A DNA stretch of 32,000 nt from Candidatus Saccharimonadota bacterium (GCA_016700135.1 CP065004.1:180001-212000); one strand, 5' to 3'. Positions 76 to 28,933 are shown, counted from the stretch's first letter. Numbers and translations: made by a program. Notes: generated from the letters alone by a model not told the origin.

Positions 76-636
76 ATGAAACTAACTAACAAAAAAATTA
101 TTATATTGATCTCTGCTCTGGTCGGAGTACTTGTTCTGATAATCTTAATACTGAATGTGATAACACAACGGAAAGAAACCGCTACTCCTGAGACAAATCC
201 CGAAGTTATAAAGAAGGAAGTACAAAAGGTAATTGAAATTACGGAAGTTCCCCGGGTTCCTGATGAAAAGGGAGGAGGGATTGATACTGATTCTCCTGAA
301 GTAAAGACCTCCGTTCAGTCATTACAAAAGCTTCAATCAGCGCTTCCCTTTTATAAAATTTTCACAACTGAAGACGGAACAGAAGTCGAAGTTTCCATTC
401 CTCCTACATCAACAATTTCAAATGAGTGGACTTTACTCGTCCATATTTTCGGCCCGGACTATCAGATTCCCGAAGATTCGTCCGATTATGAGACTCAAAA
501 ACAAGCATTTCTGGCCGGAGTAAGTGAAGTTATGCTTTTTCTCGAAGAACAGGAAATCAATCCTTCAGAAATAATCATCCAATGGGGCGACAGAGCAATC
601 ATAGGTGACCGGTCTGCCAAATGGCTTTCGGAATAA
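76..636 (+). CDS. hypothetical protein with single N-terminal TM anchor
   Basis: 186-aa ORF. One hydrophobic helix near the N-terminus (IIILISALVGVLVLIILILNVI); the rest is acidic and soluble-looking. Lies 36 nt upstream of the next same-strand gene. No family recognised. Confidence 0.55.
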   Translation: MKLTNKKIIILISALVGVLVLIILILNVITQRKETATPETNPEVIKKEVQKVIEITEVPRVPDEKGGGIDTDSPEVKTSVQSLQKLQSALPFYKIFTTEDGTEVEVSIPPTSTISNEWTLLVHIFGPDYQIPEDSSDYETQKQAFLAGVSEVMLFLEEQEINPSEIIIQWGDRAIIGDRSAKWLSE

Positions 637-668: not shown

Positions 669-674
669 TAGAAT
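669..674 (+). promoter_or_regulatory. -10-like TAGAAT, 7 nt upstream of ATG 682
   Basis: Part of the recurrent hexamer-N6-8-ATG pattern (see findings). Confidence 0.3.
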
Positions 675-2376
675 GAATTGTATGTTTAAGTATCTGCTTT
701 TAATGGGTTTTGGATTCTCCAAGTATGCTTTCCATGTCGTGAAACGAATAATGATTGTTTTACTGGTTTTTACCTCAGTTATTTCTTTATTTTTCTTCTT
801 TAGGCAAGATAAAAAAATTCAGGATAACGCTTCATATATGTCTGTTCAACGAGAAAGAATATATATGAATATCGAAGCTATGAAAAAAGATACTTCATCG
901 GAAGGTAAAGCAAAACTGTTTGTATATCAAGGATGGATGTGTAACATCATAGGAGAAGCTTGTACCGACAATCCCGAAGATGCAAATATGAACGTCAGAA
1001 ATAGCCTTTCAGGAATCATAACCGGATGGATCACAGCACCGTATGCAAATCCTCCAGCATCCGGGATAGCCTGGCTGAAAGACGGTTTCCGTGATGCTGG
1101 TTTTGTACCGGAGACTTATGCTGCAACGGGAGTGGGCTTCGCATCTATTGCAAGTTATATGGAAATTTGGAAGCTGTTTAGGGATATTGCTTATCTTATC
1201 TTAGTGTTGGTCATGATAACGATAGGATTCATGATAATGTTTAGAGTTAATCTCGGAGGAGCCGCAGTAAGCATTGAGGCTGCCCTCCCACGAATTGTAA
1301 TCGCAATGATTATGATTACATTTTCATTCCCAATAGCAGGTTTCTTGATTGACCTTATGTATACATTAATCGCCATTAGCGTTGGTTTATTCTTTGATGT
1401 TGCGATTCAACAAGATGCTCTTACAGGCGAATATTCCTCTGCAAAGGAATATCTCAATCAGTATATGACAGCCGGTATTTGGCAAATCTGGCCAGACGGC
1501 GGTGGTACATATTTTTCCGTAGGTAACAGTTTATGGAGACTCATGCCAGCATCAGTACAAAACATGTTTCATATTGCAATGGTTGTACCGCTTGCAGTTA
1601 CTGCTGCTGATAAGTTCGGATGGATGACAGGTAAAATTGCAGACTTATTTAAGGGACTCTCCCTTGCCGGATTTAGTTCTGGAAACTTGGCAGGTATTCC
1701 GCATGTGGTCTTATTATCAGTACTCTTCGGAGCATTAGTTATATGGGGACCCGGATTAATTTTTGGGGGAATTATTATGCTCACAGTGCTACTCTTTGTA
1801 TTCCGGATATTTTTTATGCTGCTCGAGTCTTATATTAAAATTTTACTTTACATTATTTTTGCGCCAATTATTTTGCTCTTTAGCGCTATACCAGGAAACG
1901 GAAATATCGGCTGGTGGTTACGAAACCTTATAGGAGAGCTTATAACATTTCCAACAGTAATTGTCCTTACACTAGTAGGCAACGCCGTTCTCGCAGTGAA
2001 TGTTCGGGATATGGATCATCCCTTTGGTCATTTAATTGGTGGCTTCGGAATTGAGAATACATTCAAATTGCCATTTTTATATGGGTTCCAAACAGACGAT
2101 TTCAATACCATTATTGCACTTGGACTTGTGCTGATGATTCCCGATTTTGTAAAAATGGTAAAAGGATGGATAGGAGTACAGGATACGGGATTGAAATTTG
2201 GACTCGGGACTTTCTTTGCAGGAGCAACTATCTTTACAGGTGGTCTTGGTCTTGGGGCTAATCTCCAAAGCTGGAAACAATCAGCTGTCGGATATGATCC
2301 CAATAAGGGCTGGATGGATACCATGCCATTTATGAGTAAATATGCTGAAAAGATTCGAAGTTGGGGGAAAACTTAA
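673..2376 (+). CDS. polytopic integral membrane protein, function unknown (VirB6/TrbL-like role is only a hypothesis)
   Basis: 567-aa ORF with roughly 10 or more long hydrophobic segments (e.g. AYLILVLVMITIGFMIMF, VVLLSVLFGALVIWGPGLIFGGIIMLTVLLFVF). The start may be the ATG at 682, because TAGAAT (669-674) sits 7 nt upstream of it. No motif I can name. Confidence 0.7.
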   Translation: MNCMFKYLLLMGFGFSKYAFHVVKRIMIVLLVFTSVISLFFFFRQDKKIQDNASYMSVQRERIYMNIEAMKKDTSSEGKAKLFVYQGWMCNIIGEACTDNPEDANMNVRNSLSGIITGWITAPYANPPASGIAWLKDGFRDAGFVPETYAATGVGFASIASYMEIWKLFRDIAYLILVLVMITIGFMIMFRVNLGGAAVSIEAALPRIVIAMIMITFSFPIAGFLIDLMYTLIAISVGLFFDVAIQQDALTGEYSSAKEYLNQYMTAGIWQIWPDGGGTYFSVGNSLWRLMPASVQNMFHIAMVVPLAVTAADKFGWMTGKIADLFKGLSLAGFSSGNLAGIPHVVLLSVLFGALVIWGPGLIFGGIIMLTVLLFVFRIFFMLLESYIKILLYIIFAPIILLFSAIPGNGNIGWWLRNLIGELITFPTVIVLTLVGNAVLAVNVRDMDHPFGHLIGGFGIENTFKLPFLYGFQTDDFNTIIALGLVLMIPDFVKMVKGWIGVQDTGLKFGLGTFFAGATIFTGGLGLGANLQSWKQSAVGYDPNKGWMDTMPFMSKYAEKIRSWGKT

Positions 2377-2497
2377 ACCATCCTCTTTCATTGTCTGAAC
2401 TAGCAGAAACATACCTACAACAGTGTTTTCTTAGATTATCAATGTCAAAGTATAAAACACCTAATTACTAGAAAAACCTTACATAGTACTAACTTCT

Positions 2498-4093
2498 TCA
2501 GATTCTATCAGCGGGGAGTGAAGGTCGGGGGGTGGGAGTCGGAGTAGGTCCTACGAAACCCGGTAACCTAAGAATATCTACTCCAATCACTCTCAATATA
2601 AAGATCGAGAAGATAATCACAATAAGCCCCGTAATACATGCCGTCATCAGCTCCTGAGCCTTCCCCGTACGCTCCGGATTCCCTGCCGATGTCTGCATCA
2701 AAAATGAAGCATAAATAATACATCCTAATGCTATCATCCCTGCAAAGCTGATCGCCAGTCCAAATACTCTCTCATTTAATGTCTTACTGAAATCCGAATA
2801 CATACATCCAAATGCTGTCCATACCCCATCCTTGTCCATCATACAATCAAAACACTTCGCAAATTCCTCCTTGTCATAGTTCCCATCCGAATCCTTCACA
2901 TCCTTGATCGATTTACAAATCTCATGTGCCTTAAAATATGTATCTGCCATGACTTTCGAACATTCATCTCCCCGATTAAGAGCATCCATCCCCGTACTGT
3001 CATATCCAAATCTCTTCTCTATCTCCTCATCCGTCAACTTCGCACAGTAATTACTCTCAAACGCACTTCTCACATTCATGCCTCTCGCAGGATTCCACCG
3101 CGTCCCATACGGATAATCATCCGGATTAACCGTTACTCCTCTCACTTCTCCTCCGCTTGTTACCCCCTCTACGCTCGTCTCCGGTACCTCACAGTAACAG
3201 GCTACTGACTTCCCATCTCCAAACCCTTGCCGAAATTTCTCCCGGGCCTCTTCCCATGCCTCGGTCTTTGCCGAAGGTACCGCATTCTGTGCCGGCTTTA
3301 TCCAATCCCATATCTCATCTAGTTCCTCCTTCTTTGTGATTGCTTCTCTCGTTCCTACCACATTTCCTTCATCATCCACTGTTACCCGATACGGATTCGG
3401 TACCAATGGAACCTCCTGTCCATCCTCCCCGTTTATCGTCCCCGTACACATATCCATACTGCTTGTCAACTCCTCTGCCGGATTGATACCCCCCGTGAAA
3501 AGTCCTATGATCTTTTGCTTTGTCTCCTCCGAAAACAAATTCGTAAACCAGTTGTTCTTCTTTGCCAGTGTCGGATCTGAAAAATCCGGCGGTGCCTGCA
3601 TATCGATCGCTACCCCACCTAAACAACACGCTCCCCCCTCCTCCAACCCGCACACCGTCATCTCCAACTGCTTCTCAAAATTGCCTATGGTATCAGCAGA
3701 TGGTGTTATTTCAGGGCGTGGCGTAAGTACATTTGTGACAGGTGTTAAAGGAATACTATCAAACCATTCTTTAGCTTTCTGAATATAAATGGGTTTTAGT
3801 TGATTTTCGAATAAAGTTAATTGAGTAGTCGTACAAGATAATCCGGTTAATTGAAGAGCAATAACAACATTGTAATAATTTTCAAAACAAGTATTCCAAT
3901 ATTCATCATTTATAGAACCGGAATTGGTACATTTAAAAGCACTATCATTAAAAGGCTTTGCTGTATATTCATCAATAATACTGGTGAGTTTTTGTGTGCA
4001 GGCATCTTGTGCAGAAACAGCTTTAGGAATTATGAAAAGGAAAACCATTAAAACAAAAAGAGAGAATAGAAGCTTATTAGGGATGAATGACAT
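2498..4093 (-). CDS. secreted Cys-rich protein with C-terminal pilin-like two-helix anchor (paralogue A, short head)
   Basis: The ORF-track entry 2498..4234 is trimmed to the ATG at 4093 (MSFIPNKLLFSLFVLMVFLFIIPKAVSAQ, signal-peptide-like). The longer version would overlap the upstream gene end. The C-terminal ~380 aa are shared with the 4194..6248 product. It ends with two hydrophobic helices flanking SAGNPERTGKAQE, then a Pro/Thr-rich tail. Confidence 0.75.
   Translation of the reverse strand: MSFIPNKLLFSLFVLMVFLFIIPKAVSAQDACTQKLTSIIDEYTAKPFNDSAFKCTNSGSINDEYWNTCFENYYNVVIALQLTGLSCTTTQLTLFENQLKPIYIQKAKEWFDSIPLTPVTNVLTPRPEITPSADTIGNFEKQLEMTVCGLEEGGACCLGGVAIDMQAPPDFSDPTLAKKNNWFTNLFSEETKQKIIGLFTGGINPAEELTSSMDMCTGTINGEDGQEVPLVPNPYRVTVDDEGNVVGTREAITKKEELDEIWDWIKPAQNAVPSAKTEAWEEAREKFRQGFGDGKSVACYCEVPETSVEGVTSGGEVRGVTVNPDDYPYGTRWNPARGMNVRSAFESNYCAKLTDEEIEKRFGYDSTGMDALNRGDECSKVMADTYFKAHEICKSIKDVKDSDGNYDKEEFAKCFDCMMDKDGVWTAFGCMYSDFSKTLNERVFGLAISFAGMIALGCIIYASFLMQTSAGNPERTGKAQELMTACITGLIVIIFSIFILRVIGVDILRLPGFVGPTPTPTPRPSLPADRI
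2642..3691. repeat. direct repeat copy 1 (about 1.05 kb, near-identical to 4320..5369)
   Basis: Offset is exactly 1678 bp. Every line I compared is identical from 2642 to 3683, with a single mismatch at 3684 (c vs t). The antisense ORFs 2924..3208 and 4602..4886, and 3157..3339 and 4835..5017, are identical in the ORF track. Confidence 0.9.
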
Positions 4094-4099
4094 ACTATG

Positions 4100-4105
4100 A
4101 TTATA
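4100..4105 (-). promoter_or_regulatory. -10 TATAAT, 6 nt upstream of ATG 4093
   Basis: Minus strand reads GGTTATAATCATAGTATG. No SD-like purine run. Confidence 0.4.
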
Positions 4106-4193
4106 ACCATAATGACAATCGTTTGTGGAGCTAAAACACTGTGAGATCGCTACAGTGAAGAGAACAGACAGAGGCACCATTACAGGTAGATAC

Positions 4194-6248
4194 TCACTCT
4201 GAAGATGGTATGGGAGTTGGAGAAGGACCTCCAAATCCCGGTAACCTGAGAATATCTACTCCAATCACTCGCAAAATGAATATCGAAAATATGATCACTA
4301 TCAATCCCGTAATACATGCTGTCATCAGCTCCTGAGCCTTCCCCGTACGCTCCGGATTCCCTGCCGATGTCTGCATCAAAAATGAAGCATAAATAATACA
4401 TCCTAATGCTATCATCCCTGCAAAGCTGATCGCCAGTCCAAATACTCTCTCATTTAATGTCTTACTGAAATCCGAATACATACATCCAAATGCTGTCCAT
4501 ACCCCATCCTTGTCCATCATACAATCAAAACACTTCGCAAATTCCTCCTTGTCATAGTTCCCATCCGAATCCTTCACATCCTTGATCGATTTACAAATCT
4601 CATGTGCCTTAAAATATGTATCTGCCATGACTTTCGAACATTCATCTCCCCGATTAAGAGCATCCATCCCCGTACTGTCATATCCAAATCTCTTCTCTAT
4701 CTCCTCATCCGTCAACTTCGCACAGTAATTACTCTCAAACGCACTTCTCACATTCATGCCTCTCGCAGGATTCCACCGCGTCCCATACGGATAATCATCC
4801 GGATTAACCGTTACTCCTCTCACTTCTCCTCCGCTTGTTACCCCCTCTACGCTCGTCTCCGGTACCTCACAGTAACAGGCTACTGACTTCCCATCTCCAA
4901 ACCCTTGCCGAAATTTCTCCCGGGCCTCTTCCCATGCCTCGGTCTTTGCCGAAGGTACCGCATTCTGTGCCGGCTTTATCCAATCCCATATCTCATCTAG
5001 TTCCTCCTTCTTTGTGATTGCTTCTCTCGTTCCTACCACATTTCCTTCATCATCCACTGTTACCCGATACGGATTCGGTACCAATGGAACCTCCTGTCCA
5101 TCCTCCCCGTTTATCGTCCCCGTACACATATCCATACTGCTTGTCAACTCCTCTGCCGGATTGATACCCCCCGTGAAAAGTCCTATGATCTTTTGCTTTG
5201 TCTCCTCCGAAAACAAATTCGTAAACCAGTTGTTCTTCTTTGCCAGTGTCGGATCTGAAAAATCCGGCGGTGCCTGCATATCGATCGCTACCCCACCTAA
5301 ACAACACGCTCCCCCCTCCTCCAACCCGCACACCGTCATCTCCAACTGCTTCTCAAAATTGTCTATGGTCGCCTCCGGAACAAAATCATATTCAGGAGGT
5401 ATTTCTGTTATAGAACCTGCCTCAATATTTTTATTCAGAAAACGGATAACAAACCGGTCTCGTGCTTCGTGATTAGGAACCTGTCTGCTCGGATCATACT
5501 CGCCATCTGCATCTTTCGTCAAAAGCCAATTTTGGTGACAAACAAATGCAGAGCCTCCACCCCAAGAGTTAAATATCTGTTCATATTGAAGCAATGCACA
5601 ATCCGTAAGAGCGTCAGAGCGTGTTCGATTATCAGCATTAGGATCAACTGGAATACCGCAATTCCAAAAATTGTGAGTCGGCGGTAGTGCGTCAATTGCT
5701 TCATTCAAAGCTACTGAATCACAGCCTTGAACGGTAGTGAATACGGCAGTATCTTCACAGCTTGGAACTGTTGCACCATCTGACTTAGTGCAGTATGATA
5801 TTTGCTTTGGCTCAGTTGTTGGAGATGGTAATGGAACCGGTGTTGAAGTGGGTTCATTTGGGGTAACTTTTTGTTCATACAGACGTATCAAATAATCGCC
5901 ATTTGTACCCCATTTTTCACAGTAATCCTTACAATCATGATAATCACCTGACTGCCACCACAAATTCCCTATTGCTAAATTGCTACAAACCATACTTTTA
6001 AACTCAGTAGAGGAACATTTATAAGAAGAATTATTCGTACAGTATTGCAACACTGATGGATCTGCTTGCTCAAGTTTTTGTGAAACGCCCTGTCTGTCTA
6101 CCATAGATCCTCGAAGTCCTGCATCACAGCTCATACGTCCCTGCTGTATAAGAAGCTCTTGAAGCTGTGGGTTTATTGTTTTTTCCTGCGCAAAAACTCG
6201 AGGAACAACCAATAAAGCCCCAACAAGAAGTAAAAGTTTCCATCTCAT
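4194..6248 (-). CDS. secreted Cys-rich protein with C-terminal pilin-like two-helix anchor (paralogue B, long head)
   Basis: 684-aa ORF with signal peptide MRWKLLLLVGALLVVPRVFAQ. It has a ~290-aa Cys-rich unique N-terminal part with a Pro/Thr/Ser linker (PTSTPVPLPSPTTEP), then the shared body and anchor. It ends in a PSPTPIPSSE tail. Confidence 0.8.
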   Translation of the reverse strand: MRWKLLLLVGALLVVPRVFAQEKTINPQLQELLIQQGRMSCDAGLRGSMVDRQGVSQKLEQADPSVLQYCTNNSSYKCSSTEFKSMVCSNLAIGNLWWQSGDYHDCKDYCEKWGTNGDYLIRLYEQKVTPNEPTSTPVPLPSPTTEPKQISYCTKSDGATVPSCEDTAVFTTVQGCDSVALNEAIDALPPTHNFWNCGIPVDPNADNRTRSDALTDCALLQYEQIFNSWGGGSAFVCHQNWLLTKDADGEYDPSRQVPNHEARDRFVIRFLNKNIEAGSITEIPPEYDFVPEATIDNFEKQLEMTVCGLEEGGACCLGGVAIDMQAPPDFSDPTLAKKNNWFTNLFSEETKQKIIGLFTGGINPAEELTSSMDMCTGTINGEDGQEVPLVPNPYRVTVDDEGNVVGTREAITKKEELDEIWDWIKPAQNAVPSAKTEAWEEAREKFRQGFGDGKSVACYCEVPETSVEGVTSGGEVRGVTVNPDDYPYGTRWNPARGMNVRSAFESNYCAKLTDEEIEKRFGYDSTGMDALNRGDECSKVMADTYFKAHEICKSIKDVKDSDGNYDKEEFAKCFDCMMDKDGVWTAFGCMYSDFSKTLNERVFGLAISFAGMIALGCIIYASFLMQTSAGNPERTGKAQELMTACITGLIVIIFSIFILRVIGVDILRLPGFGGPSPTPIPSSE
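4320..5369. repeat. direct repeat copy 2 (partner of 2642..3691)
   Basis: Same evidence as copy 1. Beyond 5369 (3691 in copy 1) the two sequences are unrelated. Confidence 0.9.
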
Positions 6249-6254
6249 TACTTA

Positions 6255-6260
6255 ATCATA
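6255..6260 (-). promoter_or_regulatory. -10-like TATGAT, 6 nt upstream of ATG 6248
   Basis: Minus strand reads AAGTATGATTAAGTAATG. Confidence 0.3.
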
Positions 6261-11201: not shown

Positions 11202-11218
11202 TAAGGCTCTAGACTAGC
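11202..11218. repeat. IS terminal inverted repeat (jag-proximal end)
   Basis: TAAGGCTCTAGACTAGC is the perfect reverse complement of 11906-11922. Confidence 0.8.
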
Positions 11219-11883
11219 ACATTAACAATTTGTAATAGTTCATTGTAAAGGATCGATGGGGATTTGCTCCATCTCCATTCACACTCTTTCAAGTGTAATG
11301 GAAAGTTTTTCTTTACACCATTGAACTTAACGAGACGTCTTTTACAAAAGGACCAGAATGACTCTATGCCATTGATATGGACCCCTTTTGTATTTGAGAA
11401 CTCATTTTTCTTGTGATTGATTCTCAAATGTTTGTCATACCCGACATCAACAAGTCCGTTGTATCCGCTCCACGAATCTGAATATACAGTACTGTTCAAG
11501 TCAATCTTTCCCTTCATAACAGCATGTAGCGTTCTTCTTTTACAGTTTGGAATGATACGAGTAAATACACGTCCTTGACGCTCATATATCCCAAATACTA
11601 CCTGCTTAAATGACGTCCCACGACCTCTTTTACTTGACTTGCCTCTCATCCTTCGAGGTCCAAAGTATGATTCATCAATTTCTATCTCACCACCAACATA
11701 TCGTTGCATCTGGTGCACTTGGTGATGATATATGAGTTGACGAATATTATTGTAATATTTGTTGACTGTATTGCGGTTGAGACCCAAAATACCAGAGGTC
11801 TGTGTAGCACTCAGATCGTGTGCAAAACACCATAGTATCTTTTTTCTCTTGTATTTTGATATCGGCCTATTGTTACAAACCAT
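11209..11883 (-). CDS. IS1595-family DDE transposase
   Basis: 224 aa. HTH-like LNRNTVNKYYNNIRQ; IEIDESYFG; SDSWSGY; HINGIESFWSFCKRRL. These are characteristic of DDE_Tnp_IS1595 proteins (from memory; confirm by HMM search). Confidence 0.8.
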   Translation of the reverse strand: MVCNNRPISKYKRKKILWCFAHDLSATQTSGILGLNRNTVNKYYNNIRQLIYHHQVHQMQRYVGGEIEIDESYFGPRRMRGKSSKRGRGTSFKQVVFGIYERQGRVFTRIIPNCKRRTLHAVMKGKIDLNSTVYSDSWSGYNGLVDVGYDKHLRINHKKNEFSNTKGVHINGIESFWSFCKRRLVKFNGVKKNFPLHLKECEWRWSKSPSILYNELLQIVNVLV

Positions 11884-15207: not shown

Positions 15208-17526
15208 ATGGAATGGTTTATATCAATACTTAACTGGTACCTGTATCTTGCGGTTCTCGGATTACTTTTTTGGCCCCTTTCCAAGCGATTATTCGGAACA
15301 TTTATTGATAAAGGATACGCCTTTTCAAAAACAATAAGTATTATCATTCTCAGCTATGCAATTTTCCTTCTCGGTATTCTGCATATCCTGCCTTTTTCAA
15401 AGGAAAGCCTGATTATTCTGCTGATCATTTCCGGATTTATGATCTTCAGATATTTCAAAAAGGAAATTATTGAGATCAAGAAACTCGATCCGAAAACATG
15501 GTTATTGATCGGCGGGATTGAAATTATGTTCTTCATCGGCCTTGTCGCGCTTTCATTTGTACGGGGACAGGAACCGTCCATACACGGACTCGAAAAATTT
15601 ATGGATTTCGGATTTATGCAGTCAATTAACCGCTCCGAATATTTCCCCCCGAAAGACATGTGGCTCTCGGCCGATCCTACTCACCCTGATGGGTATCCGA
15701 TCAATTACTACTATTTCGGGCATTTGACCGGATCATTCCTGATAAAACTTACCGGAATTAACCCTTTTGTCGGATACAATCTCACACTGGCAACGATTTT
15801 TGCACAGGGAATAACACTCGCTTTTACACTTACTGCCTCAATCGTGCAACGATTACAAGTACTGCTGAATAAAGGAAAAGGTTTAAGCAGGATTCCGTCA
15901 GTTATAACGGGACTTTTGGGAAGCTTTATGGTTAACCTCGGCGGGAATCTCCATACGATTTATACTTTGACAAAAGGATATCCGAATGATAAACCTATAC
16001 CCTTCTGGGAGATTTTCCAGTCTCCGAAGGACATATCCACGACCATGAGTACCGGTAAAGGGTTGTTTGAGAGTATTGTCCAAAACTCAAGTTACTGGTA
16101 CCCAAATGCTACCAGATTCATCCCTTTCACGATCCATGAATTCCCGTCATATTCTTATGTCGTTGCGGATTTGCACGGACATGTATTTGATATTCCGCTC
16201 GTATTAGTCACCATTGCAATCATCTGGAGATTTTTTGAGTTTTGGCATAGTACAGACAAAAAGAAACCTGAGTTTTTCAAGGGTTTCAATATTTTCAATT
16301 TATTTAAGAAAAAAACATCATTCAGCAATATCAAAGAGAAGGTACATTCACTAAAAATTCAAAAAACAGAAGCGATTTTTTCCGTTTTAATCGGTTTTAT
16401 GATCGGCATCAATTATATGACCAATGCTTTCGACGGTCCGATCTATCTTCTTATCGCATTTGTCATGTTTTTCTATCTCTATCGTACGACGCTCAAATTC
16501 ATAGCACTGTCCGTGATAACGATTGCATCATTTGTTGTGACGACCCTTCCGTTTTCGTGGTTTTTTGAACCTTTTGCCAGCTCGATTGGAGTCAACTGCA
16601 GCCCGGATTTTCTGGTCAAACTGGAAAAACTCGGCCCGTTTTTGTTCGAGCAGGGAAACTGTCAGGTATCTCCGATTTATATGCTGTTTGTATTGTGGGG
16701 ATTCTTTTGGATATCCGCTATTCTCCTTCTCGTTTTTCTTTGGAAGAACGGTCATTTTAATAAATCACCGATTATATGGATTGACTCCTTTGTTCTGATG
16801 TTGTTTGCATACGGAACGTTTCTGATACTGGTACCCGAGTTCTTTTATATCAAAGACATCTATCCCGGCCATTTCCGGGCAAATACGATGTTTAAGATGG
16901 GATATCAGGCATTTATGATGATGAGTATCAGCTCGGCCTATGTGTTCTACCGTATCGGTATGTGGAAATCAAAACTACGTTTTGTTCTGAGAGGTATATT
17001 TGCATTCTTTTTTATATTTGTTTTCATCTATCCTTTCCTTGCATTCCCTTCCTATTACCCGGGACTGTACGACATCGAAACGTACCGTAAATCTCCTAAC
17101 CTGGACGGCAGTTCCTGGATGGCAAGTATGTACCCGCAGGATAAAGAGATCATTGACTATATCAACGATAATATTGCCGGACAGCCGGTGATTCTTGAGG
17201 CTCAGGGAGACTCATATACCGATTATGACCGGGTGTCAGCATACACCGGAGTACCGACCGTTGCCGGCTGGTGGGTACATCAATGGCTGTGGAGAGGGTC
17301 ACCGGGTATAGTCGGAGATCGGATTCCTGACATTGAGGCTCTGTATCAGTCCGAAGATATCCAACAAACCAAGCACCTCATCAACAAATATGATATTGAG
17401 TATGTAGTCATCTCCAATATTGAAAGAGAAAAATATCCCAATATCAATGAGGAAAAATTCGGTCAAATAGGGATCAAAGTATTCCAGTCCGATAATGGTT
17501 TTGGGGCTCTGTATAAGGTATATTAG
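15208..17526 (+). CDS. DUF2298 / Chlor_Arch_YYY-family polytopic membrane protein (GT-C-like)
   Basis: 772 aa with many TM helices. Carries the family-defining YYYxG motif (YPINYYYFGHLTG). The C-terminal soluble part has VILEAQGDSYTDYDRVSAYTGVPTVAGWWVHQWLWRG. Confidence 0.8.
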   Translation: MEWFISILNWYLYLAVLGLLFWPLSKRLFGTFIDKGYAFSKTISIIILSYAIFLLGILHILPFSKESLIILLIISGFMIFRYFKKEIIEIKKLDPKTWLLIGGIEIMFFIGLVALSFVRGQEPSIHGLEKFMDFGFMQSINRSEYFPPKDMWLSADPTHPDGYPINYYYFGHLTGSFLIKLTGINPFVGYNLTLATIFAQGITLAFTLTASIVQRLQVLLNKGKGLSRIPSVITGLLGSFMVNLGGNLHTIYTLTKGYPNDKPIPFWEIFQSPKDISTTMSTGKGLFESIVQNSSYWYPNATRFIPFTIHEFPSYSYVVADLHGHVFDIPLVLVTIAIIWRFFEFWHSTDKKKPEFFKGFNIFNLFKKKTSFSNIKEKVHSLKIQKTEAIFSVLIGFMIGINYMTNAFDGPIYLLIAFVMFFYLYRTTLKFIALSVITIASFVVTTLPFSWFFEPFASSIGVNCSPDFLVKLEKLGPFLFEQGNCQVSPIYMLFVLWGFFWISAILLLVFLWKNGHFNKSPIIWIDSFVLMLFAYGTFLILVPEFFYIKDIYPGHFRANTMFKMGYQAFMMMSISSAYVFYRIGMWKSKLRFVLRGIFAFFFIFVFIYPFLAFPSYYPGLYDIETYRKSPNLDGSSWMASMYPQDKEIIDYINDNIAGQPVILEAQGDSYTDYDRVSAYTGVPTVAGWWVHQWLWRGSPGIVGDRIPDIEALYQSEDIQQTKHLINKYDIEYVVISNIEREKYPNINEEKFGQIGIKVFQSDNGFGALYKVY

Positions 17527-17661: not shown

Positions 17662-18020
17662 GTCCCCCTTTAGCGGTAGATTTTTATAGCTGTATTATTT
17701 GAAACGGCAACGACAGATTTTTATTCATCAGTGCAAACAACTGCTTCCGTCCGAAATTCTTCATATCGTTGTTTAAAAACTTAGAGCTGTTTCTTTTTCC
17801 TCTGTTCGCAAATCTGACCGGTGTCAATTTCATATCTTTATCGTAATCCACTTTTCAACACCAGTCAAGTCTTATAGTAATTATTGGTTACTTTTTACAG
17901 CATCCTATAGTTTTTAATAACATATATAGACTGCTGTATCAATATTTTTTCAGTTATACACACCTTGTGGATAACTGTATTTACGGCTATTTATTACAGA
18001 TTCCTAACAGTTCTGGAGTT

Positions 18021-18029
18021 TGCTACAAT
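18021..18029 (+). promoter_or_regulatory. extended -10 TGCTACAAT, 6 nt upstream of ATG 18036
   Basis: TTTGCTACAATAGAAGTATG. Confidence 0.4.
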
Positions 18030-18035
18030 AGAAGT

Positions 18036-18806
18036 ATGAAAGTCTCAGTCGTAATTCCCACATATAACGAGGAAAAATATATCGGTACTTGTTTGGAATC
18101 ACTCATGCAACAGGAAGAAAAAGCAGATGAAATCATTATTGTCGACAACAACTGTACAGACAAAACCGTAGAAATTGCTAAGCAATATCCTGTGAGAATA
18201 GTTCACGAAAAGACACAGGGTATGACACCAGCCAGAAATCGAGGGTATGATGAGGCTAAATATGAAATTATCGCCCGAACCGATGCAGATGCCATCCTTC
18301 CGACGAATTGGATTGCAACAATAAAGAAAGGCTTTGCGGATGAAAACATTGTTGCTCTTGCCGGCCCTACATTTTTTTATGACGCCCCTCTGCCCGGTAC
18401 GACAACCAAGCTTCAATCCATCATTTTTTTTAAGGGGACAAGACTTATGCTTGGTCATGAGACAACACACGGGCCGAATACTGCTCTGAGGAAATCTGCA
18501 TGGGAGAAGGTCCGAAATGACGTCTGTCTGGATGACCGCGCCGTACATGAAGATATTGATTTAGCTATACATCTCAGCCGTATCGGTACCATCAAATATG
18601 AGCCCGCTATGCTCAACAAAGTATCGGCACGCCGCATCAACTACAATTTTTCTTCAATAGCAACGGATTATTCAGTACGGTGGTTCAAAACCTGTCTTCA
18701 CCAAAGATGGCCTGACTTGAAGAATAAATTACCACACCCGGCGATAATAGAAAAAGCCAAAAACGCCTACCACAATAAGCGCAGAAAAGACAATACTGAG
18801 AGCTGA
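18036..18806 (+). CDS. family 2 glycosyltransferase
   Basis: MKVSVVIPTYNEEKYIGTCLESL ... IIIVDNNCTDKT ... ARTDADAI (DxD-like). The track ORF began at a GTG at 17967. I trimmed it to the ATG at 18036, which sits 6 nt after TGCTACAAT. Confidence 0.85.
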   Translation: MKVSVVIPTYNEEKYIGTCLESLMQQEEKADEIIIVDNNCTDKTVEIAKQYPVRIVHEKTQGMTPARNRGYDEAKYEIIARTDADAILPTNWIATIKKGFADENIVALAGPTFFYDAPLPGTTTKLQSIIFFKGTRLMLGHETTHGPNTALRKSAWEKVRNDVCLDDRAVHEDIDLAIHLSRIGTIKYEPAMLNKVSARRINYNFSSIATDYSVRWFKTCLHQRWPDLKNKLPHPAIIEKAKNAYHNKRRKDNTES

Positions 18807-23593: not shown

Positions 23594-23932
23594 TTGGTAT
23601 ACACTCATTGGTATATGTATAAGCTAGCCTTTCAATCTCTTCTTCAGATAGATATACGTGATAAAGACATTTTTCCCGCCTCAAGATTCGGAGACATAAA
23701 CACCTTACTCAGTATCGTTGTACCTACTCTGACCATTATCGGCGTTGTCATTTTCGGTGCGATGTTTATGTGGGCAGGGTATCAAATCCTGACTGCCGGT
23801 GATGAACCTGACAAACTCCAGCAGGCACGGCAAACCGCTGTGTATGCTGCCGTCGGAATGCTTATTATTGTGGCTGCATTCCTGATCGTCCGGCTGCTTG
23901 CATTTATTTTCAAACTTGAAATTCCAATATGA
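23594..23932 (+). CDS. small TrbC/VirB2-like two-helix 'pilin' protein 1
   Basis: Helix 1 is LLSIVVPTLTIIGVVIFGAMFMWAGYQIL. The loop is TAGDEPDKLQQARQ. Helix 2 is AVYAAVGMLIIVAAFLIVRLL. The start is uncertain (TTG 23594 or ATG 23615). ATGA overlap with the next gene. Confidence 0.65.
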   Translation: MVYTHWYMYKLAFQSLLQIDIRDKDIFPASRFGDINTLLSIVVPTLTIIGVVIFGAMFMWAGYQILTAGDEPDKLQQARQTAVYAAVGMLIIVAAFLIVRLLAFIFKLEIPI

Positions 23933-24333
23933 ACCTTTCAATACTTTTTGAGAAAACGAACCAGATATTACTTACTTCACCGGTCAGCAACGTATTCGGT
24001 ACACCCGTGAAGCCCCCCGGTCCGACTTGGACGAACCCGGTTGAAGGAATCTCCCGCATCATGGTTTTCAGCATCCGCATGGCTCTTATCATCGGTGTGA
24101 TTCTGGTGCTTTTTTATCTTCTGTGGGGTGCATTTGACTGGATCACCGGCGGAGGAGATCAGGACAAACTGGATAAGGCAAGACAGAAAATGACGAATGC
24201 CGTGCTCGGTATTGTGATCATGGTTGCCGCACTGGGATTATTTGCAGCAGTAGCAGGAGATGTTCTCGGGCTTATCAAACGTGATGCACAGGGGAACTGG
24301 AGATTTTCACTGCCGACTATTCAGGAGCAGTAG
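23929..24333 (+). CDS. small TrbC/VirB2-like two-helix 'pilin' protein 2
   Basis: Helix 1 is ALIIGVILVLFYLLWGAFDWI. The loop is TGGGDQDKLDKARQK. Helix 2 is AVLGIVIMVAALGLFAAVAG. Same hairpin pattern as the neighbouring gene. Confidence 0.7.
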   Translation: MNLSILFEKTNQILLTSPVSNVFGTPVKPPGPTWTNPVEGISRIMVFSIRMALIIGVILVLFYLLWGAFDWITGGGDQDKLDKARQKMTNAVLGIVIMVAALGLFAAVAGDVLGLIKRDAQGNWRFSLPTIQEQ

Positions 24334-24335
24334 TA

Positions 24336-25286
24336 CTATTCCCTGACTTCTAGTACTCCTTCAAAGTTTTGCTGAAAAGGAATTGTACGGAGTTTTTTCT
24401 CTCTGCAATAAGTTTCGAATCCTTCCGTATCTCTTATAACGAACAAAATCAGCCCTGAACCTTCCTGCTGTCCGCCGGCTCCTGTCACCTTCCCTACACC
24501 GTACGGTGTAAGTTCATCGAGCAATGCTTGTGTGCTTGTTGATACGATCCCAAAGTCGACAAGCAATTTCTGATTTTCTCCAATACACTCGGAAAAAAAG
24601 GTAAGATCTTCTTTCACGATTGATACAACCATCCGTTTAGTCACTTTTTCGATACCGACAAGCGTTTGTTCCATGGCTGAAGTCTCCGTATTGTATTTTT
24701 TTCCGACTAGCTTCACCATATCCGAGGTAGATTCCACAGGTTTTCCGGAATCAATTAATACGAGTTTGTCCTGTATGTTTTTGGGGATTTTGAAGTTGAG
24801 CGCCGAAATATACTTCAAAAACTCAAACTCTTTCCGATAGTAAATAAGCCCGCCGAAGCAGGAAGCACTGACGTCAACTCCTGACGGCATGCCGTGAAAA
24901 TGATGTTCACATTTATAGGCAAGCGAATTGATCGTTTCTTTGTCGTATGGTTTTCCGGTATAGAAATGAAGAAGTGCAGCCACGGTCGCGACACAAAATG
25001 CTGCAGATGAACCCATTCCACGTCCTTCAGGAATCTCGGAACGTACGGAAAAAGAGAATTCCTGATCATGTATATGTACAGACTGTTTTTCCAGATACGC
25101 TTTTACAATGCCGTCACAGTATGCAAAGGCTTCCTTCACTTTTGGATCAAACTTCGAGGGAGTTCCCGTTTGAATCGTAGCAGTGAGAAGTAGATCGACT
25201 GCTGTCACAAGTGCCGGCTTAGTATAGACAACGGAATGTTCTCCTGAAAGAATAATCTTCCCCGGGGCAGAATATGTTATCATCAT
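24336..25286 (-). CDS. mvk: mevalonate kinase (GHMP kinase)
   Basis: APGKIILSGEHSVVY N-terminal motif; GHMP motif PEGRGMGSSAA; C-terminal KVTGAGG. Confidence 0.85.
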   Translation of the reverse strand: MMITYSAPGKIILSGEHSVVYTKPALVTAVDLLLTATIQTGTPSKFDPKVKEAFAYCDGIVKAYLEKQSVHIHDQEFSFSVRSEIPEGRGMGSSAAFCVATVAALLHFYTGKPYDKETINSLAYKCEHHFHGMPSGVDVSASCFGGLIYYRKEFEFLKYISALNFKIPKNIQDKLVLIDSGKPVESTSDMVKLVGKKYNTETSAMEQTLVGIEKVTKRMVVSIVKEDLTFFSECIGENQKLLVDFGIVSTSTQALLDELTPYGVGKVTGAGGQQEGSGLILFVIRDTEGFETYCREKKLRTIPFQQNFEGVLEVRE

Positions 25287-25588
25287 GCTGCAGGTTTGAA
25301 CTTGACTCCGTACTCAACAACATCTTCCGGCCCCACATCACCGACTTTCCGAAAGACCGATGTCACTTTTGCACCGATTTTCCGTTCATCTGCGGAAAAA
25401 TCAACCAGTTGCCCGTAGACAAGTTCCTTTGTATCAAGTTCCACCAGAACAACTGTGTAAGGTGTGATCGAATCAAATTTCGGCGGTGAAACAAACACTT
25501 CCGTCCATGACCTGATAGTCCCGGTATGCCCTAATTTCTTTTTATCCTGTTGTTGTTTACGCCAGACGCGTACTGCACTTTGCGACAT
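25283..25588 (-). CDS. DUF35-type OB-fold protein (thiolase/HMGCS partner), no zinc ribbon
   Basis: 101 aa. OB-fold-like GTIRSWTEVFVSPPKFDSITPYTVVLVELD ... GAKVTSVFRKV. It contains no Cys at all. Sits between the thiolase and mvk genes; 4-nt overlap with mvk. Confidence 0.7.
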   Translation of the reverse strand: MSQSAVRVWRKQQQDKKKLGHTGTIRSWTEVFVSPPKFDSITPYTVVLVELDTKELVYGQLVDFSADERKIGAKVTSVFRKVGDVGPEDVVEYGVKFKPAA

Positions 25589-25590
25589 AA

Positions 25591-26748
25591 TTACGCTCCT
25601 AAAATACTAACTACTGCAACTCCTCCGCTTCCGCCGACGTTGTGAGTCAGGCCGAACTGCGGATTTTTTACCTGCCGTTCTCCTGCCTGTCCGGTCAACT
25701 GGAGATATATCTCTCCTATTTGTTTGATACCCGTACCTCCGACCGGATGACCGGCAGCTTTCAATCCTCCAGATGTGTTTACGATGAGATTACTGCCTGA
25801 ATCACGGGAGGTGACCATCTCTTTCGCCAGCTTACCTCCCTGTCCTTTTTCCCAAAAACCGAGATCTTCCAAGGCCAAAATTTCCGCTATTGAAAAACAG
25901 TCATGTACTTCCATAACATGCACATCCTGTCTGTCTATACCCGCATGATGAAATGCTTTTTCCGCAGCAATGACCGTTGCTTCCAGTGTGTCCAGTTTTT
26001 TCCGTTTTGCAATCGAAATTGAATCAGTCGCGACCTCACTTGCCAGAATGCTTACTGCCTTTGATTTGGAGATCAATTCCTTTTTATTTGAAAGTATCAC
26101 CGCAGCGGCACCGTCTGAGATCGGGGAACTGTCAAGAACCTTTAAAGGATAGGCAACATACGGACTTTCCAGCACATTATCGATTGTCACGTATCTTCTG
26201 AAGTGTGCCTTTTCATTCAGGACTCCATGGGCATGGTTTTTTACGGAAATACTGGCCAAATGCTCCTCACTGTAGCCGTAAGTATCAAGATACATCTGGG
26301 CTAATAATCCATAGACTCCGGGGAACGTCAGCCCGGCTGACTGTTCCTCCACGGATGCTGCAGCAGCAAGACTTCTTGTAATCTCAGAAGCTCCGATATC
26401 CGTCATTTTTTCCGCGCCGAGAACCATCACCGAGGAATCAGGATGACTTTTCAGATACTCATCAGCCGTTTGGAACGCCAAACCTCCTGATGCACACGCA
26501 GCCTCAACACGATATACCGGGACATGTATTCCCGTAAGCTCAGAAATATGTGCTGAAAGCAGAAGGTTCTCTTCAACAACTCCCCCAAGCATGTTTCCCA
26601 AAAAAACCGCATCGATATCAGATGGCTCCAGTTTGGTTTCCTGTAAGATTCCCTGAAAAGCATTTAGAATGAGATCGTCAAGAGTTTTGTCCCAAAGCTC
26701 TCCGAATTTCGTCGAATAGTATCCGATTATTGCGTTTTGATTTTTCAT
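25591..26748 (-). CDS. archaeal-type thiolase (acetoacetyl-CoA thiolase)
   Basis: Trimmed to the ATG at 26748 (MKNQNAIIGYY). The track's longer version overlaps the HMGCS gene. Catalytic Cys context VEAACASGG; MEVHDCF; C-terminal HNVGGSGG. Confidence 0.85.
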   Translation of the reverse strand: MKNQNAIIGYYSTKFGELWDKTLDDLILNAFQGILQETKLEPSDIDAVFLGNMLGGVVEENLLLSAHISELTGIHVPVYRVEAACASGGLAFQTADEYLKSHPDSSVMVLGAEKMTDIGASEITRSLAAAASVEEQSAGLTFPGVYGLLAQMYLDTYGYSEEHLASISVKNHAHGVLNEKAHFRRYVTIDNVLESPYVAYPLKVLDSSPISDGAAAVILSNKKELISKSKAVSILASEVATDSISIAKRKKLDTLEATVIAAEKAFHHAGIDRQDVHVMEVHDCFSIAEILALEDLGFWEKGQGGKLAKEMVTSRDSGSNLIVNTSGGLKAAGHPVGGTGIKQIGEIYLQLTGQAGERQVKNPQFGLTHNVGGSGGVAVVSILGA

Positions 26749-26752
26749 GGTT

Positions 26753-27773
26753 TTAGATAATATGCATGTACTGCATGTATGTGCCGTAATCAATATATGT
26801 TTTTTTCTCGATTGCTTCCCTAAACTGTTTTCTTCGTTCTTCAATAGCCGCCGTCACCTTAAAAAGGATTGCATCTGAACCTGCGCCTGAGCCGTATGAA
26901 GCGAAAAATATTGTATCTCCTGCCTTCGCATATTGCAACGTTGCAACAAGTCCCATCAAAGCAGATGCAGAGTATGAGTTGCCGAGTACCGGCACAACAT
27001 ATGACTTTTCGACTTGCTCCCTGGTAAAACCGAGCTTCTGTGCTGCCTTCAGGGGAAAACTGCCATTTGGCATATGGAACACACCGTATGTGATATCCTG
27101 CGCGGTAATATTCTGTTTTTCAAGAAGGGCTTTTGAGGATGAAAGAATGTGCCTGAAGTATGCCGGTGATCCCGTAAAACGTCCCGCATGTGAAGGATAA
27201 TCGGCCTTTGCACGCCTCCAGAAATCCGGAGTATCGGAAGAATATGAATGCCAGTCAATAATTTCAAGTATTACATCTTTTGTCCCGAGAAGCCAGGCAT
27301 TTGCACCTGATCCTGCTGAGTACTCAAGAGTATCCTTCGGTCGGGCATTTGCTTTATCAGACGCACAGACTAGGGCATACTCGATATCTCCCGACTTCAC
27401 CAAAGCCTGAGCTGAAATAAGGGCTCCTGTTGCCGCTTTGCAGGCAAACTGAGTATCATACGCAAGATAATCATTCGACAGGCCGAGCCAATCGGCAAGC
27501 GATGTAGAAACCGCTTGACTGCATACGGAAACGTTTCTGATCCGATAAATACCGCTCCGATATCTTTTTGAGCCCTTCGTGTCCTGCAAGTGCCATTGTC
27601 GAGGCTTCAAAGGCCATAGTCACCATATCCTCATCACGTCCGGCTACGGCTTTTTCTGTGACACGCAAGGACCGTTCGACCTTGTCGGTACATTTTCCCC
27701 ACTGTCTTGCGACATCATCTACTTTGATCCGATATTTTGGGATATAAAATCCGTAGTCAACAATTCCTATCAT
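26753..27773 (-). pseudogene. HMG-CoA synthase (archaeal type), reading frame broken twice near the 5' end
   Basis: Track ORFs 27471..27773 and 26753..27610 are pieces of one gene. The expected KDIGAVFIGSETFPYAVK segment is encoded in the third frame between them. This implies a 1-nt loss in the run at 27565-27569 and a 1-nt loss near 27513 (AAG CGG for AAG CCG G). The downstream part is intact (FACKAATGAL, HMPNGSFP, SYGSGAGSD). Confidence 0.8.
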
Positions 27774-27774
27774 A

Positions 27775-28933
27775 TTATCTTCCTAATTTTTTATGGGCCT
27801 TTCCAAGGGTCTTCTCCGTAATAGAGGCCAAAAGTGATAATTCTCCCGCCAGCACGGCGGAAACCAAAACTTCTGCTAGTTCATTTTGTGTTTGAAGCGC
27901 CTGTCATACTGCGCGCTTCTGTCTGTGTTTTCAGCTTTGTTCCTCCGCCGACCATGCCGAGCATGACATCAGGCATGTAAACAGAAAAATAAAGATCTCC
28001 GTTTTCACAGACTTCTGCTGTCGTGATGCCGAGTGATCCCTCCACGACATGAGCGATATCCTGTCCTGTCGCGGTAAAAAAAGGCGGCAACGATATTGGC
28101 AAAATGAGCATTAAAACCCATCGAGCCGGACATCATTGATCCTGCCCAGCATTTCATAATGACCGTCTTTGCAAGTGCTTTCGGCGTGACTTTCAAAAGA
28201 TCAATGACAAGTTTTTCCGGAATGACAATCTCCGCTTGACAAACCCTGCCTCTTCCGCGGATGACATTCAGCCATGCCGGTTTTTTGTCAACATCATAAT
28301 TTCCTGCTACTGCAATACATCTCGTGTCAAAATGCCCTTCAATATAGGAAACAATCTGATCAGTCGCAATCGTCACCATATTCATACCCATGGCCTGATC
28401 GGTATCATATACAAAACGCATGTATACATACTTTCCGTTTACTGCCGTTTCTATATCAATAAGTTCAAGGTGAGATGATGTTTTTCGGCTTCTGCTGAAA
28501 GAACTTCAAAATGTGATTGGACTGTCTTAATCAATTCCCGACTGTGTCGGATACTTTTTGTCTCGAAAACCGGACCTCTCGTTGTCCCGACAGGGTCAAC
28601 AGTTGTCATCGCTCCGCCGGCTTGGGAGATGATTTTACATCCACGGCTGACCGATGCGACAAGTGCGCCTTCAGTCGTAGCTAAAGGAATGAGTGTTTCA
28701 TATGTTTTTTCAGAGCCGAGTACTTTAAGAGGACCGGCTACACCGAGCGGAAGAGAGATGGCTCCGACCAGATTTTCACAGTGAATACTTGTTTCCTCAT
28801 CTACCAAAACCCCGGTCAATGACTTTAATGAAACTTGTTTTTCCGTTTCAATCAATGTCCGTCGCTCTTTCGTTGTTTTTGCACTTCTCAAGTTCATGTA
28901 CTTGTAGTCGTACTCCTGGAGAAAATCATTCAC
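27775..28933 (-). pseudogene. HMG-CoA reductase, reading frame broken three times
   Basis: Pieces 28451..28933 ([29 protein letters not shown]), 28005..28421 (DQAMGMNMV), 27881..28111 (GMVGGGTKL) and an unlisted C-terminus ([36 protein letters not shown], stop at 27775-27777). The frame switches map to runs at 28481-28485 (-1), 28076-28082 (+1) and 27884-27887 (+1). GTG start at 28933. Confidence 0.8.

Follow-up and report, generated by a model that had tools for sequence, protein, structure and literature searches.

Two tandem genes with unrelated Cys-rich heads and a common PF18895-like hairpin module in a Candidatus Roizmanbacteria genome

Results

Two tandem genes share an identical tract of 1041 bp

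The window analyzed here is a 32-kb stretch of DNA (GCA_016700135.1, CP065004.1:180001-212000). Two adjacent genes on its minus strand, a long-head gene (copy 1, 684 aa) and a short-head gene (copy 2, 531 aa), encode proteins with the same order of modules: a signal peptide, a head, a Pro/Thr linker, a body, a Cys motif and a hairpin of the VirB2/TrbC type. Both proteins are filed at NCBI as hypothetical proteins (QQS44152 and QQS44153) of a Candidatus Roizmanbacteria genome, which consists of one contig of 1,448,136 bp. The start of copy 2 was set to the ATG at 4093, and the resulting 531-aa form is QQS44152; a longer open reading frame (ORF) from a TTG at 4234 runs into the upstream gene.

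An earlier note on this DNA had described the genes as tandem paralogues with about 1.04 kb of identical sequence beginning at 2642. A position-by-position comparison at an offset of 1678 confirmed the identity, which covers exactly 1041 bp (2643-3683 and 4321-5361). Position 2642/4320 is a mismatch, so that the earlier range was one base too long. Below 2643 the base-by-base comparison found shorter identical runs as far as 2559. In a repeat search the tract was the sole long direct repeat of the window (family D1). The shared part of the two proteins comprises 376 identical residues, from NFEKQLEM to LRLPGF.

Both genes are preceded by a promoter-like -10 box. The spacer between the copies contains TCCACA, a gap of 18 nt and TATAAT (4100-4105), and this -10 box ends 6 nt before the ATG of copy 2. 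Copy 1 has a TATGAT box (about 6255-6260), which ends equally far before its ATG. These sites are consensus matches, and the scan gave no more of them than shuffled sequence. Because no Shine-Dalgarno sequence is evident at either gene, their mRNAs may be leaderless and may start from separate promoters.

Gene conversion in an old pair of paralogues

The edges of the identical tract are informative about its origin. The 5' edge is abrupt; there the Pro/Thr linker ends and the homology of the heads stops; the 3' end lies inside the second helix of the hairpin. The 30 codons which follow on the 3' side (2555-2644 compared with 4233-4322) contain 15 nucleotide differences in 14 of the 30 codons, and all of these are synonymous (dS 1.28, dN about 0). 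Beyond this flank the Pro/Thr tails and the stop codons differ. With the divergence of the flank (16.7% per site) about 174 differences are expected in 1041 bp; the observed number is 0. Since an identical tract abuts a flank with only synonymous differences and a dS of 1.28, the comparison shows that recent gene conversion copied 1041 bp (the body, the first helix and the loop) between old paralogues. A recent duplication of the whole gene is ruled out by the same dS value.

The age of the second copy is also evident from related loci. The orthologous locus of UBA1450 (Roizmanbacteria) and three Logan assemblies carry one intact long-head gene (P0003), which is followed by the remnant of a second copy. 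This remnant, which stems from the C-terminus, is frameshifted and contains stop codons; it is 63-67% identical to every intact copy, its own neighbour included. Because the remnant is equally distant from all intact copies, the second copy must be old. A Rifle-aquifer scaffold from a different lineage (L011), which contains no Ns, holds another tandem pair. Its heads are only 21% identical, the body is 100% identical over 1077 bp, and in the alignment its junction is no more than about four columns away from that in the window. Homogenization by gene conversion, which the earlier note had postulated, is thus borne out by the synonymous-only flank, by the L011 pair and by the decayed copy in the UBA1450 locus.

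Another explanation is that the duplication is an artefact of assembly or polishing and that there is in reality one gene, or two genes with differing bodies. The source is a metagenome-assembled genome in a single 1.448-Mb contig, and residual errors exist in it, since at least one gene of the window (HMG-CoA reductase) is split by a frameshift. In general assembly practice, multi-mapping reads are able to homogenize repeats during polishing and could in this way create identity. However, each copy comes with a separate in-frame head and signal peptide, a separate tail and a separate stop codon, and differences that are exclusively synonymous are not the product of an artefact. Furthermore, a Logan contig from another sample (L056), which is 96.6% identical to positions 1-2530 of the window, carries the copy-2-specific tail beside the gene for a 567-aa protein. 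It ends at about 2533, where the repeated sequence starts; such a break at the edge of a repeat is expected of a short-read assembler. The independent tandem pair in L011 and the decayed second copy in four sister-species assemblies point in the same direction. Together, these results make an artefact very improbable. They show that the window contains two real, old tandem paralogues, which encode exported, disulfide-rich proteins of a Roizmanbacteria-specific family.

Unrelated heads on a common body and a pilin-type hairpin

The N-termini of both proteins read as signal peptides. After the predicted cleavage sites (…AVSA/QD and …VFA/QE) the mature heads comprise 109 aa and 276 aa, respectively. 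BLASTP found no similarity between head A of copy 2 and head B of copy 1 (best E 0.38). The heads contain 4 and 12 Cys, the shared ectodomain 12 and the hairpin 2. This agrees with the earlier description of unrelated Cys-rich heads behind cleavable signal peptides, and with its modular scheme of head, body and anchor. The DNA of head A (3684-4093) has a GC content of only 32.4%, compared with 47.6% in the shared body, 41.5% in head B and 42% in the window. Because of this deviation we suggest that head A has a different, possibly foreign, origin. The plus strand has its most negative GC skew of the window (-0.21 to -0.31) at 2001-6000, where the minus-strand coding sequence is G-rich (Gly/Glu/Asp).

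The C-terminal module, which is constant, consists of a short Cys motif (C…C..C…GVWTAxGC) and a two-helix hairpin of the PF18895 VirB2/TrbC type. In Pfam the hairpins match PF18895 (T4SS_pilin, for pilins of type IV secretion systems, T4SS) with 26.1 and 26.5 bits (E 9e-6 and 7e-6) over profile positions 7-71 of 71; the gathering score of this family is 26.6 bits. The precomputed Pfam annotation of the source database lists PF18895.6 for both proteins. Four proteins from related loci with the same C-terminal module in the same position (L021, L036, L037 and L039) pass the gathering score with 27.0-31.5 bits. The layout is also that of PF18895, with a leader peptide, two hydrophobic helices and a short charged loop. 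The size is not: family-typical proteins have about 100-180 aa.

An AlphaFold2 model of the 531-aa protein, computed from an alignment of 22 sequences, was poor outside residues 345-510. Within this part the model shows the hairpin as a pair of long helices, at residues 435-468 and 473-503 (pLDDT 85-90), which the loop SAGNPERTGKAQE connects. The profile match and the model both support the pilin-like helical end that had been noticed before.

Searches with the ectodomain gave no comparable result. Neither Pfam, NCBIfam nor PADLOC contained a match to it; when both proteins and three neighbours were scanned, the only hits, PF18895 and NF045849, were on the hairpin. The family alignment, used as a profile, had no match among PDB sequences, and Foldseek of the 531-aa model against the PDB gave nothing better than E 0.88. 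In these databases the earlier statement that no described family has such an ectodomain fused to the hairpin has therefore held. Independent copies of the window's own genes were sought with exact-sequence look-ups of P0002 and P0074, which returned no record.

The C-terminal module occupies a conserved slot

The 307-aa body without the hairpin was used in an exhaustive HMMER search of 1.84 billion proteins. Only 12 representatives were found, and all 12 have the same hairpin at their end. The body occurs in only two of 185,579 species genomes. Further heads on this body were found neither in the 1.84 billion representative proteins nor in a scan of JGI metagenomes, which returned one already known locus.

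The distribution of the C-terminal module is much wider. About 60 proteins of 68-184 aa share 42-68% identity with its 106 aa (Cys motif and hairpin). Most carry a PF18895 annotation; several of the shortest ones probably are fragments, derived from short contigs. In a genome scan the module turned up at the same syntenic position, here called the slot, in about 35 further species of Roizmanbacteria/Microgenomates. The gene order of this slot is yidC, jag, a large protein, the pilin and then the convergent gene for the 567-aa polytopic protein; nearly every locus of sufficient length has this order. One pilin-fusion gene per locus is the rule. The slot proteins range overall from about 238 to 693 aa and most have 238-281 aa. 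Larger ones (467, 491, 518, 538, 578, 628, 661 and 692 aa) have Cys-rich heads and Pro/Thr linkers. The same C-terminal module is thus combined with ectodomains of about 130-600 aa, and a Pfam domain other than PF18895 was not found in eight large slot-mates. The fusion had been regarded as unusual. This holds in so far as no described family covers the ectodomain; it is not unique, since the module sits in the slots of these other species.

The body of the window proteins was aligned with the common forms of 240-270 aa using hhalign. The probability was 95% over the 32 columns of the Cys motif, and nothing more was aligned; the notion that the smaller slot ectodomain has been enlarged into the body was dropped for this reason. 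The clade-wide constant element is the Cys motif with the hairpin, and everything N-terminal of it is highly plastic.

Exchangeable heads and a fast-evolving body

With BLASTP we distinguished at least six classes of heads on 11 bodies. These are the long heads of P0001, P0003 and P0005, the heads of P0007 and P0011, a weak class of P0008 and P0010, and singletons, which include head A of the window. Head A has no relative among the heads of the family, and head B has orthologues in P0003 and P0005 (52-62% identity). Loci L004 (long head) and L010 (another head) are collinear with 76-78% nucleotide identity, and the head segment alone is non-homologous. Judged by this alignment, a head has been replaced at an orthologous single-copy gene.

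Body and head divergence were compared between the loci L001, L004, L011 and L014 (P0001/P0003/P0005 and P0007/P0011). In orthologues of the same head class the heads are 52-62% identical (48-62% with P0007/P0011 included) and the C-terminal modules 62-71%, whereas the body is only 23-29% identical. The neighbouring genes of the window and UBA1450 are 58-67% identical. The hairpin with its loop is conserved between species to 62-91% with many invariant columns. According to these alignments the body is the fastest-evolving segment between species, although it is identical between the paralogues within the genome. The fast divergence may reflect diversifying selection or weak constraint. The constant stalk of the earlier note is therefore constant within a genome, where 376 aa are identical, and not between species, where the body diverges more than the heads.

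Small free-standing pilins

The window also encodes two small PF18895 proteins (40.3 and 27.6 bits), which are candidates for major pilins. BLASTP of the hairpin against them found nothing. With hhalign the hairpin profile matched them with probabilities of 68% and 86% (E 5e-5 and 5e-6). The likeness to these proteins which had been noted before is hence confirmed on the level of profiles. NF045849, the NCBIfam model of the Mbov_0395 family, matches both window hairpins and both small pilins with E 4e-5 to 2e-4 (20.7-23.1 bits), well below its 40-bit cut-off.

In most Roizmanbacteria loci a small pilin of 105-140 aa, found with the same C-terminal HMM, lies about 6.5-10 kb downstream of the slot (L023, L028-L036, L038, L039, L043, L046 and L053). 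It is located several kb past the 567-aa gene and is oriented like the slot gene. The clade of the window has no small pilin within 10 kb of the slot, and the window's own are about 20 kb away.

A mevalonate-pathway-like cluster (24336-28933, minus strand) adjoins the small pilin genes and uppS. It comprises a GHMP-type (mevalonate-like) kinase, a 101-aa ORF, a thiolase-like ORF, an HMG-CoA-synthase-like ORF with ACP_syn_III domains and an HMG-CoA reductase. The latter (28005-28933, minus strand) is split into one ORF at 28451-28933 (PF00368 positions 2-132) and a second at 28005-28421 (positions 152-266). It is either a frameshifted pseudogene or the result of a leftover assembly indel, and it bears on the trust in single bases of this genome.

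Neighbouring genes

The coordinates of the genes and their parts are collected in Table 1.

Table 1. Positions of the tandem genes, their modules and neighbouring features, counted from the first nucleotide of the window.
Feature	Position	Strand	Evidence or remark
Copy 1, long-head gene, 684 aa	4194..6248	-	ORF and translation; NCBI QQS44153, IPM65_00925; exact match to P0001
Copy 1 signal peptide (predicted)	6189-6248	-	
Copy 1 head B, two Cys-rich subdomains with Pro/Thr linker between	5361-6188	-	
Copy 1 body	4470-5360	-	
Copy 1 hairpin	about 4263-4469	-	PF18895 at residues 597-662
Copy 1 Pro/Ser/Thr tail	to 4197	-	stop codon 4194-4196
Copy 2, short-head gene, 531 aa	2498..4093	-	NCBI QQS44152, IPM65_00920
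Copy 2 signal peptide (predicted)	4010-4093	-	
Copy 2 head A, 109 aa, 4 Cys, 32% GC	3683-4009	-	
Copy 2 body	2918-3682	-	
Copy 2 membrane-proximal Cys motif	2792-2917	-	
Copy 2 hairpin	2585-2791	-	PF18895 at residues 438-503; AlphaFold2 helices
Copy 2 tail		-	PTPTPTPRPSLPADRI
Gene-conversion tract, copy-2 side	2643..3683	-	identical to 4321-5361
Gene-conversion tract, copy-1 side	4321..5361	-	position-by-position comparison
Tract 3' flank, second hairpin helix, partner 4233-4322	2555..2644	-	synonymous-only differences
Intergenic spacer between copies	4094..4193	-	promoter-like site
567-aa polytopic membrane protein, convergent, candidate VirB6-like platform	673..2376	+	syntenic throughout the related loci
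186-aa bitopic protein, conserved together with the 567-aa gene	76..636	+	no family or PDB match
1344-aa protein, low-complexity N-terminus, single C-terminal transmembrane helix	6295..10329	-	directly upstream of the pilin genes, same orientation
Two small PF18895 pilins, 112 and 134 aa, distant hairpin paralogues, candidate major pilins	23594..24333	+	

For the 567-aa protein at least 758 homologues were counted; they are all unnamed and lack a Pfam domain. The protein itself has no match in Pfam, NCBIfam or PDB sequences. Its AlphaFold2 model, made with an alignment of 41 sequences, is all-helical (pLDDT 75.5, pTM 0.66). When this model was compared with the PDB by Foldseek, five of the eight top matches were TrwI/VirB6 chains of the R388 T4SS: 7o3v_F, which was the best (E 0.28, probability 0.57, TM 0.18/0.30), 7o3v_G, 7o3v_J, 8rtd_H and 8rtd_I. 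DotA of the Legionella Dot/Icm system is also among the top matches; with E values of 0.28-1.7 none of them is significant. The 186-aa and 1344-aa proteins have no match in Pfam, NCBIfam or PDB sequences, and the 1344-aa protein also has none in PADLOC. The position of the gene for the latter is kept in the closest relatives.

The wider neighbourhood in relatives contains genes of the CHAP, Amidase_2, M14 and C39-like types together with a long ClpB-like ATPase. ClpB/ClpC proteins usually have about 860 aa; the ATPases which close the conserved neighbourhood have 1185-1488 aa (L001 19450-22082, L004 18364-22070, L015 13942-17499). Beside them are genes with CHAP, Big_5, Amidase_2 or M14, and C39-like domains.

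Further genes of the window deserve mention. An IS1595/ISXO2-like DDE transposase (PF12762, E 2e-27) at 11209-11883 on the minus strand is inserted between jag and yidC, and the relatives L001, L004, L010, L011 and L015 have no gene at this site. A DUF2298 polytopic membrane protein (15208-17526, plus strand), whose position is kept in relatives, is followed by a family-2 glycosyltransferase (17967-18806, plus strand). Both genes are near those of the surface proteins with Pro/Thr-rich linkers and tails, but a link of these two to O-glycosylation of the Pro/Thr linkers would be pure speculation. A replication origin in the window was considered and rejected because the GC skew has no turn.

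Discussion

The two proteins combine a VirB2-type hairpin with large ectodomains. On balance we consider it probable that they are Sec-exported contact proteins with a VirB2-type anchor and that a T4SS-like pilus presents them at the surface, at its tip or in low copy. We infer a role as adhesins or in host contact. In the mechanism that we propose, the precursors would be exported by Sec and their signal peptides cleaved. In the membrane the hairpin would adopt the VirB2 topology, which places the ectodomain and the Pro/Thr tail outside and the loop SAGNPERTGKAQE inside. From this membrane pool the proteins would reach the surface, where their most plausible role is that of minor or tip subunits in a T4SS-like pilus made of small PF18895 pilins, and the adjacent 567-aa polytopic protein could serve as a VirB6-like platform. 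A tip or low-copy placement is assumed because a decoration of 500-660 aa on every subunit is hard to fit into a pilus lattice. The two unrelated heads would provide two contact specificities for host cells or surfaces, and, with body and hairpin identical, a single assembly and partner machinery would remain able to serve both proteins. Heads would be swapped as modules from lineage to lineage, with the body diverging fast. A more specific version makes the proteins the adhesins or tip subunits in the T4SS-like pilus of Patescibacteria, as VirB2-derived pilins with exchangeable receptor-binding heads. In this version the VirB6-like platform would insert them into a filament of small PF18895 pilins or place them on it as a cap, and conversion would keep body and hairpin identical and thereby the heads interchangeable on one machine. 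We regard it as tentative and rather unlikely.

Several observations weigh against a pilus subunit. The mature size of 500-660 aa makes polymerization doubtful, and no characterized VirB2 pilin is known to come near this size. In L022 (8867-10852) and L048 (5332-6888) the slot proteins run about 90-165 aa past the hairpin, which is ill-suited to a canonical pilin. The PF18895 scores of both window proteins are 0.1-0.5 bit under the gathering cut-off. The AlphaFold2 model of the ectodomain is poor (mean pLDDT 58.6) and no fold was matched, so that an adhesin function is without structural support; the assignment of the 567-aa protein to VirB6 relies on non-significant Foldseek matches without support from its sequence. 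Domains of the VirB4, VirB3 or TrsD type were not found among the larger window ORFs that were scanned, nor within 10 kb in relatives. In addition, the exact identity of 100% is perhaps slightly inflated by read-based polishing of the metagenome-assembled genome. The main rival to a pilus takes up some of these points. It states that the proteins are only membrane-anchored surface proteins, in which the hairpin was co-opted as an anchor and does not polymerize, and in which the ectodomain acts independently of a T4SS as an adhesin, a receptor or a binder of the cell wall or the host envelope. The mature size and the fact that VirB4 or another T4SS gene was not found nearby are consistent with this explanation. 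The same is true for the slot ectodomains, which span all sizes between about 130 and 600 aa, for the C-terminal extensions in L022 and L048, which fit a pilus lattice poorly, and for the peptidoglycan-hydrolase-like genes (CHAP, Amidase_2, M14, C39-like) in the wider neighbourhood. However, the conservation of the hairpin and its loop between species exceeds the needs of a simple anchor, and the second helix is under strong purifying selection. The hairpin is also strictly tied to a conserved polytopic partner, the best fold matches of which, though weak, are VirB6 and DotA. We therefore consider a mere anchor possible but somewhat unlikely.

A different question is whether the pair serves programmed variation, as in pilE/pilS or msp2, with recombination between the direct repeats or with silent cassettes switching heads or making chimeras. 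Identical direct repeats 1.7 kb apart are substrates for recombination, and short-read contigs break at the repeat. In related species this site holds single genes whose heads differ (L004 compared with L010; L008/L020 compared with L011). Yet tblastn found no silent fragments of heads or bodies in the 32-kb window, and the body search and the metagenome scan revealed no extra heads. Both copies look independently expressed, as each has its own signal peptide and its own -10-like box. Conversion, moreover, homogenizes the shared part rather than diversifying the variable part. Taken together, programmed switching is improbable, and these searches give no support to the system of silent and expressed cassettes which the earlier note envisaged. 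A diversity-generating retroelement was likewise rejected, since the only repeat family has no mismatches and no reverse transcriptase was found among those window ORFs that were scanned against Pfam.

Contact proteins at the tip of a T4SS-like pilus, the explanation which we favour, can be compared with several known systems. Patescibacteria have a monoderm-type T4SS with arrays of VirB2-like pilins, which were essential for epibiotic growth in the one species tested (PMC10633639, PMC12102498, PMC12857230). The T4SS genes are often near rpmH, rnpA and dnaA (PMC10633639, PMC12102498, PMC12857230), and in published arrays of Microgenomatia rpmH and rnpA are common near virB4 (PMC10633639, PMC12102498). 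The pilin arrays (PF18895/PF04956; Southlakia epibionticum SEML1_0006-0019; Wang et al. 2023, Quiñonero-Coronel et al. 2025) come from the same phylum and from the Pfam family that our hairpins match. They have in common with the window proteins the signal peptide, the two hydrophobic helices with a short charged loop, the arrangement as tandem paralogues, the rpmH-yidC-jag neighbourhood and a proposed role in host interaction. The published pilins are small and mutually divergent (mean 25%, maximum 54% identity; PMC10633639, PMC12102498). The window paralogues, in contrast, have 500-660 aa in the mature form, are identical over 376 aa and carry a large Cys-rich ectodomain before the hairpin, and a virB4 was not found in the window ORFs scanned. 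Because they exceed the small size and lack the linkage to T4SS genes, they depart from ordinary members of PF18895. In the literature searched we found no description of VirB2/PF18895 proteins with large ectodomains, and the supplement of PMC12102498 does not contain these accessions.

The tip adhesin VirB5/TrwJ and the multi-copy trwL/trwJ genes of the Bartonella Trw system offer a functional parallel. If our hypothesis is correct, they share with the window proteins an exposed, variable T4SS part for host contact, which is amplified in tandem for wider binding. This part would be mounted on a VirB6 platform as in the R388 stalk structure 7o3v, which was the top, non-significant match of the 567-aa neighbour. 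Unlike in VirB5, to which there is no similarity of sequence or fold, the contact domain would here be fused to the pilin itself. The Trw paralogues furthermore diverge and are not homogenized, as cited in PMC12102498.

Other likenesses are more distant. In the Mbov_0395 family of Mycoplasma integrative and conjugative elements a VirB2-like hairpin occurs in a wall-less or monoderm setting; these proteins have about 80 aa and, unlike the window proteins, no ectodomain. CofB and GspK are examples of the large minor pilins that occur in type IV pili and in type II secretion and have a pilin domain and a bulky extra domain at the filament tip. By analogy only, an anchor or polymerization module may tolerate a bulky domain just at the tip or in low copy; the fold of CofB and GspK is the unrelated type IV pilin fold with an N-terminal helix, and their extra domain is C-terminal. 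Neisseria opa and pilE/pilS and Anaplasma msp2 resemble the window pair in that nearby surface paralogues recombine and that the boundary of the tract is sharp where homology ends. There, incoming variable segments diversify an expression site, whereas the tract in the window homogenizes the body and the heads stay distinct.

Patescibacteria account for a large share of bacterial diversity, and their cultivated members live attached to host cells. VirB2-type proteins with ectodomains of several hundred residues and exchangeable heads would be a surprise to a T4SS specialist. The tract itself is an unusually clean natural example of conversion, with 0 differences in 1041 bp beside a dS of about 1.3, in a type of genome that is thought to be limited in recombination. 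A survey from 2025 found no adhesin for the Patescibacteria T4SS (PMC12102498). The family of pilin hairpins with ectodomains of 130-600 aa could supply this missing contact element and offers concrete candidates for the determination of host range. If the proteins are only anchored in the membrane, they still represent a large unannotated family of Microgenomates surface proteins and a new use of the VirB2 fold. If they are adhesin or tip subunits, they would constitute a modular determinant of host range in ultrasmall epibiotic bacteria.

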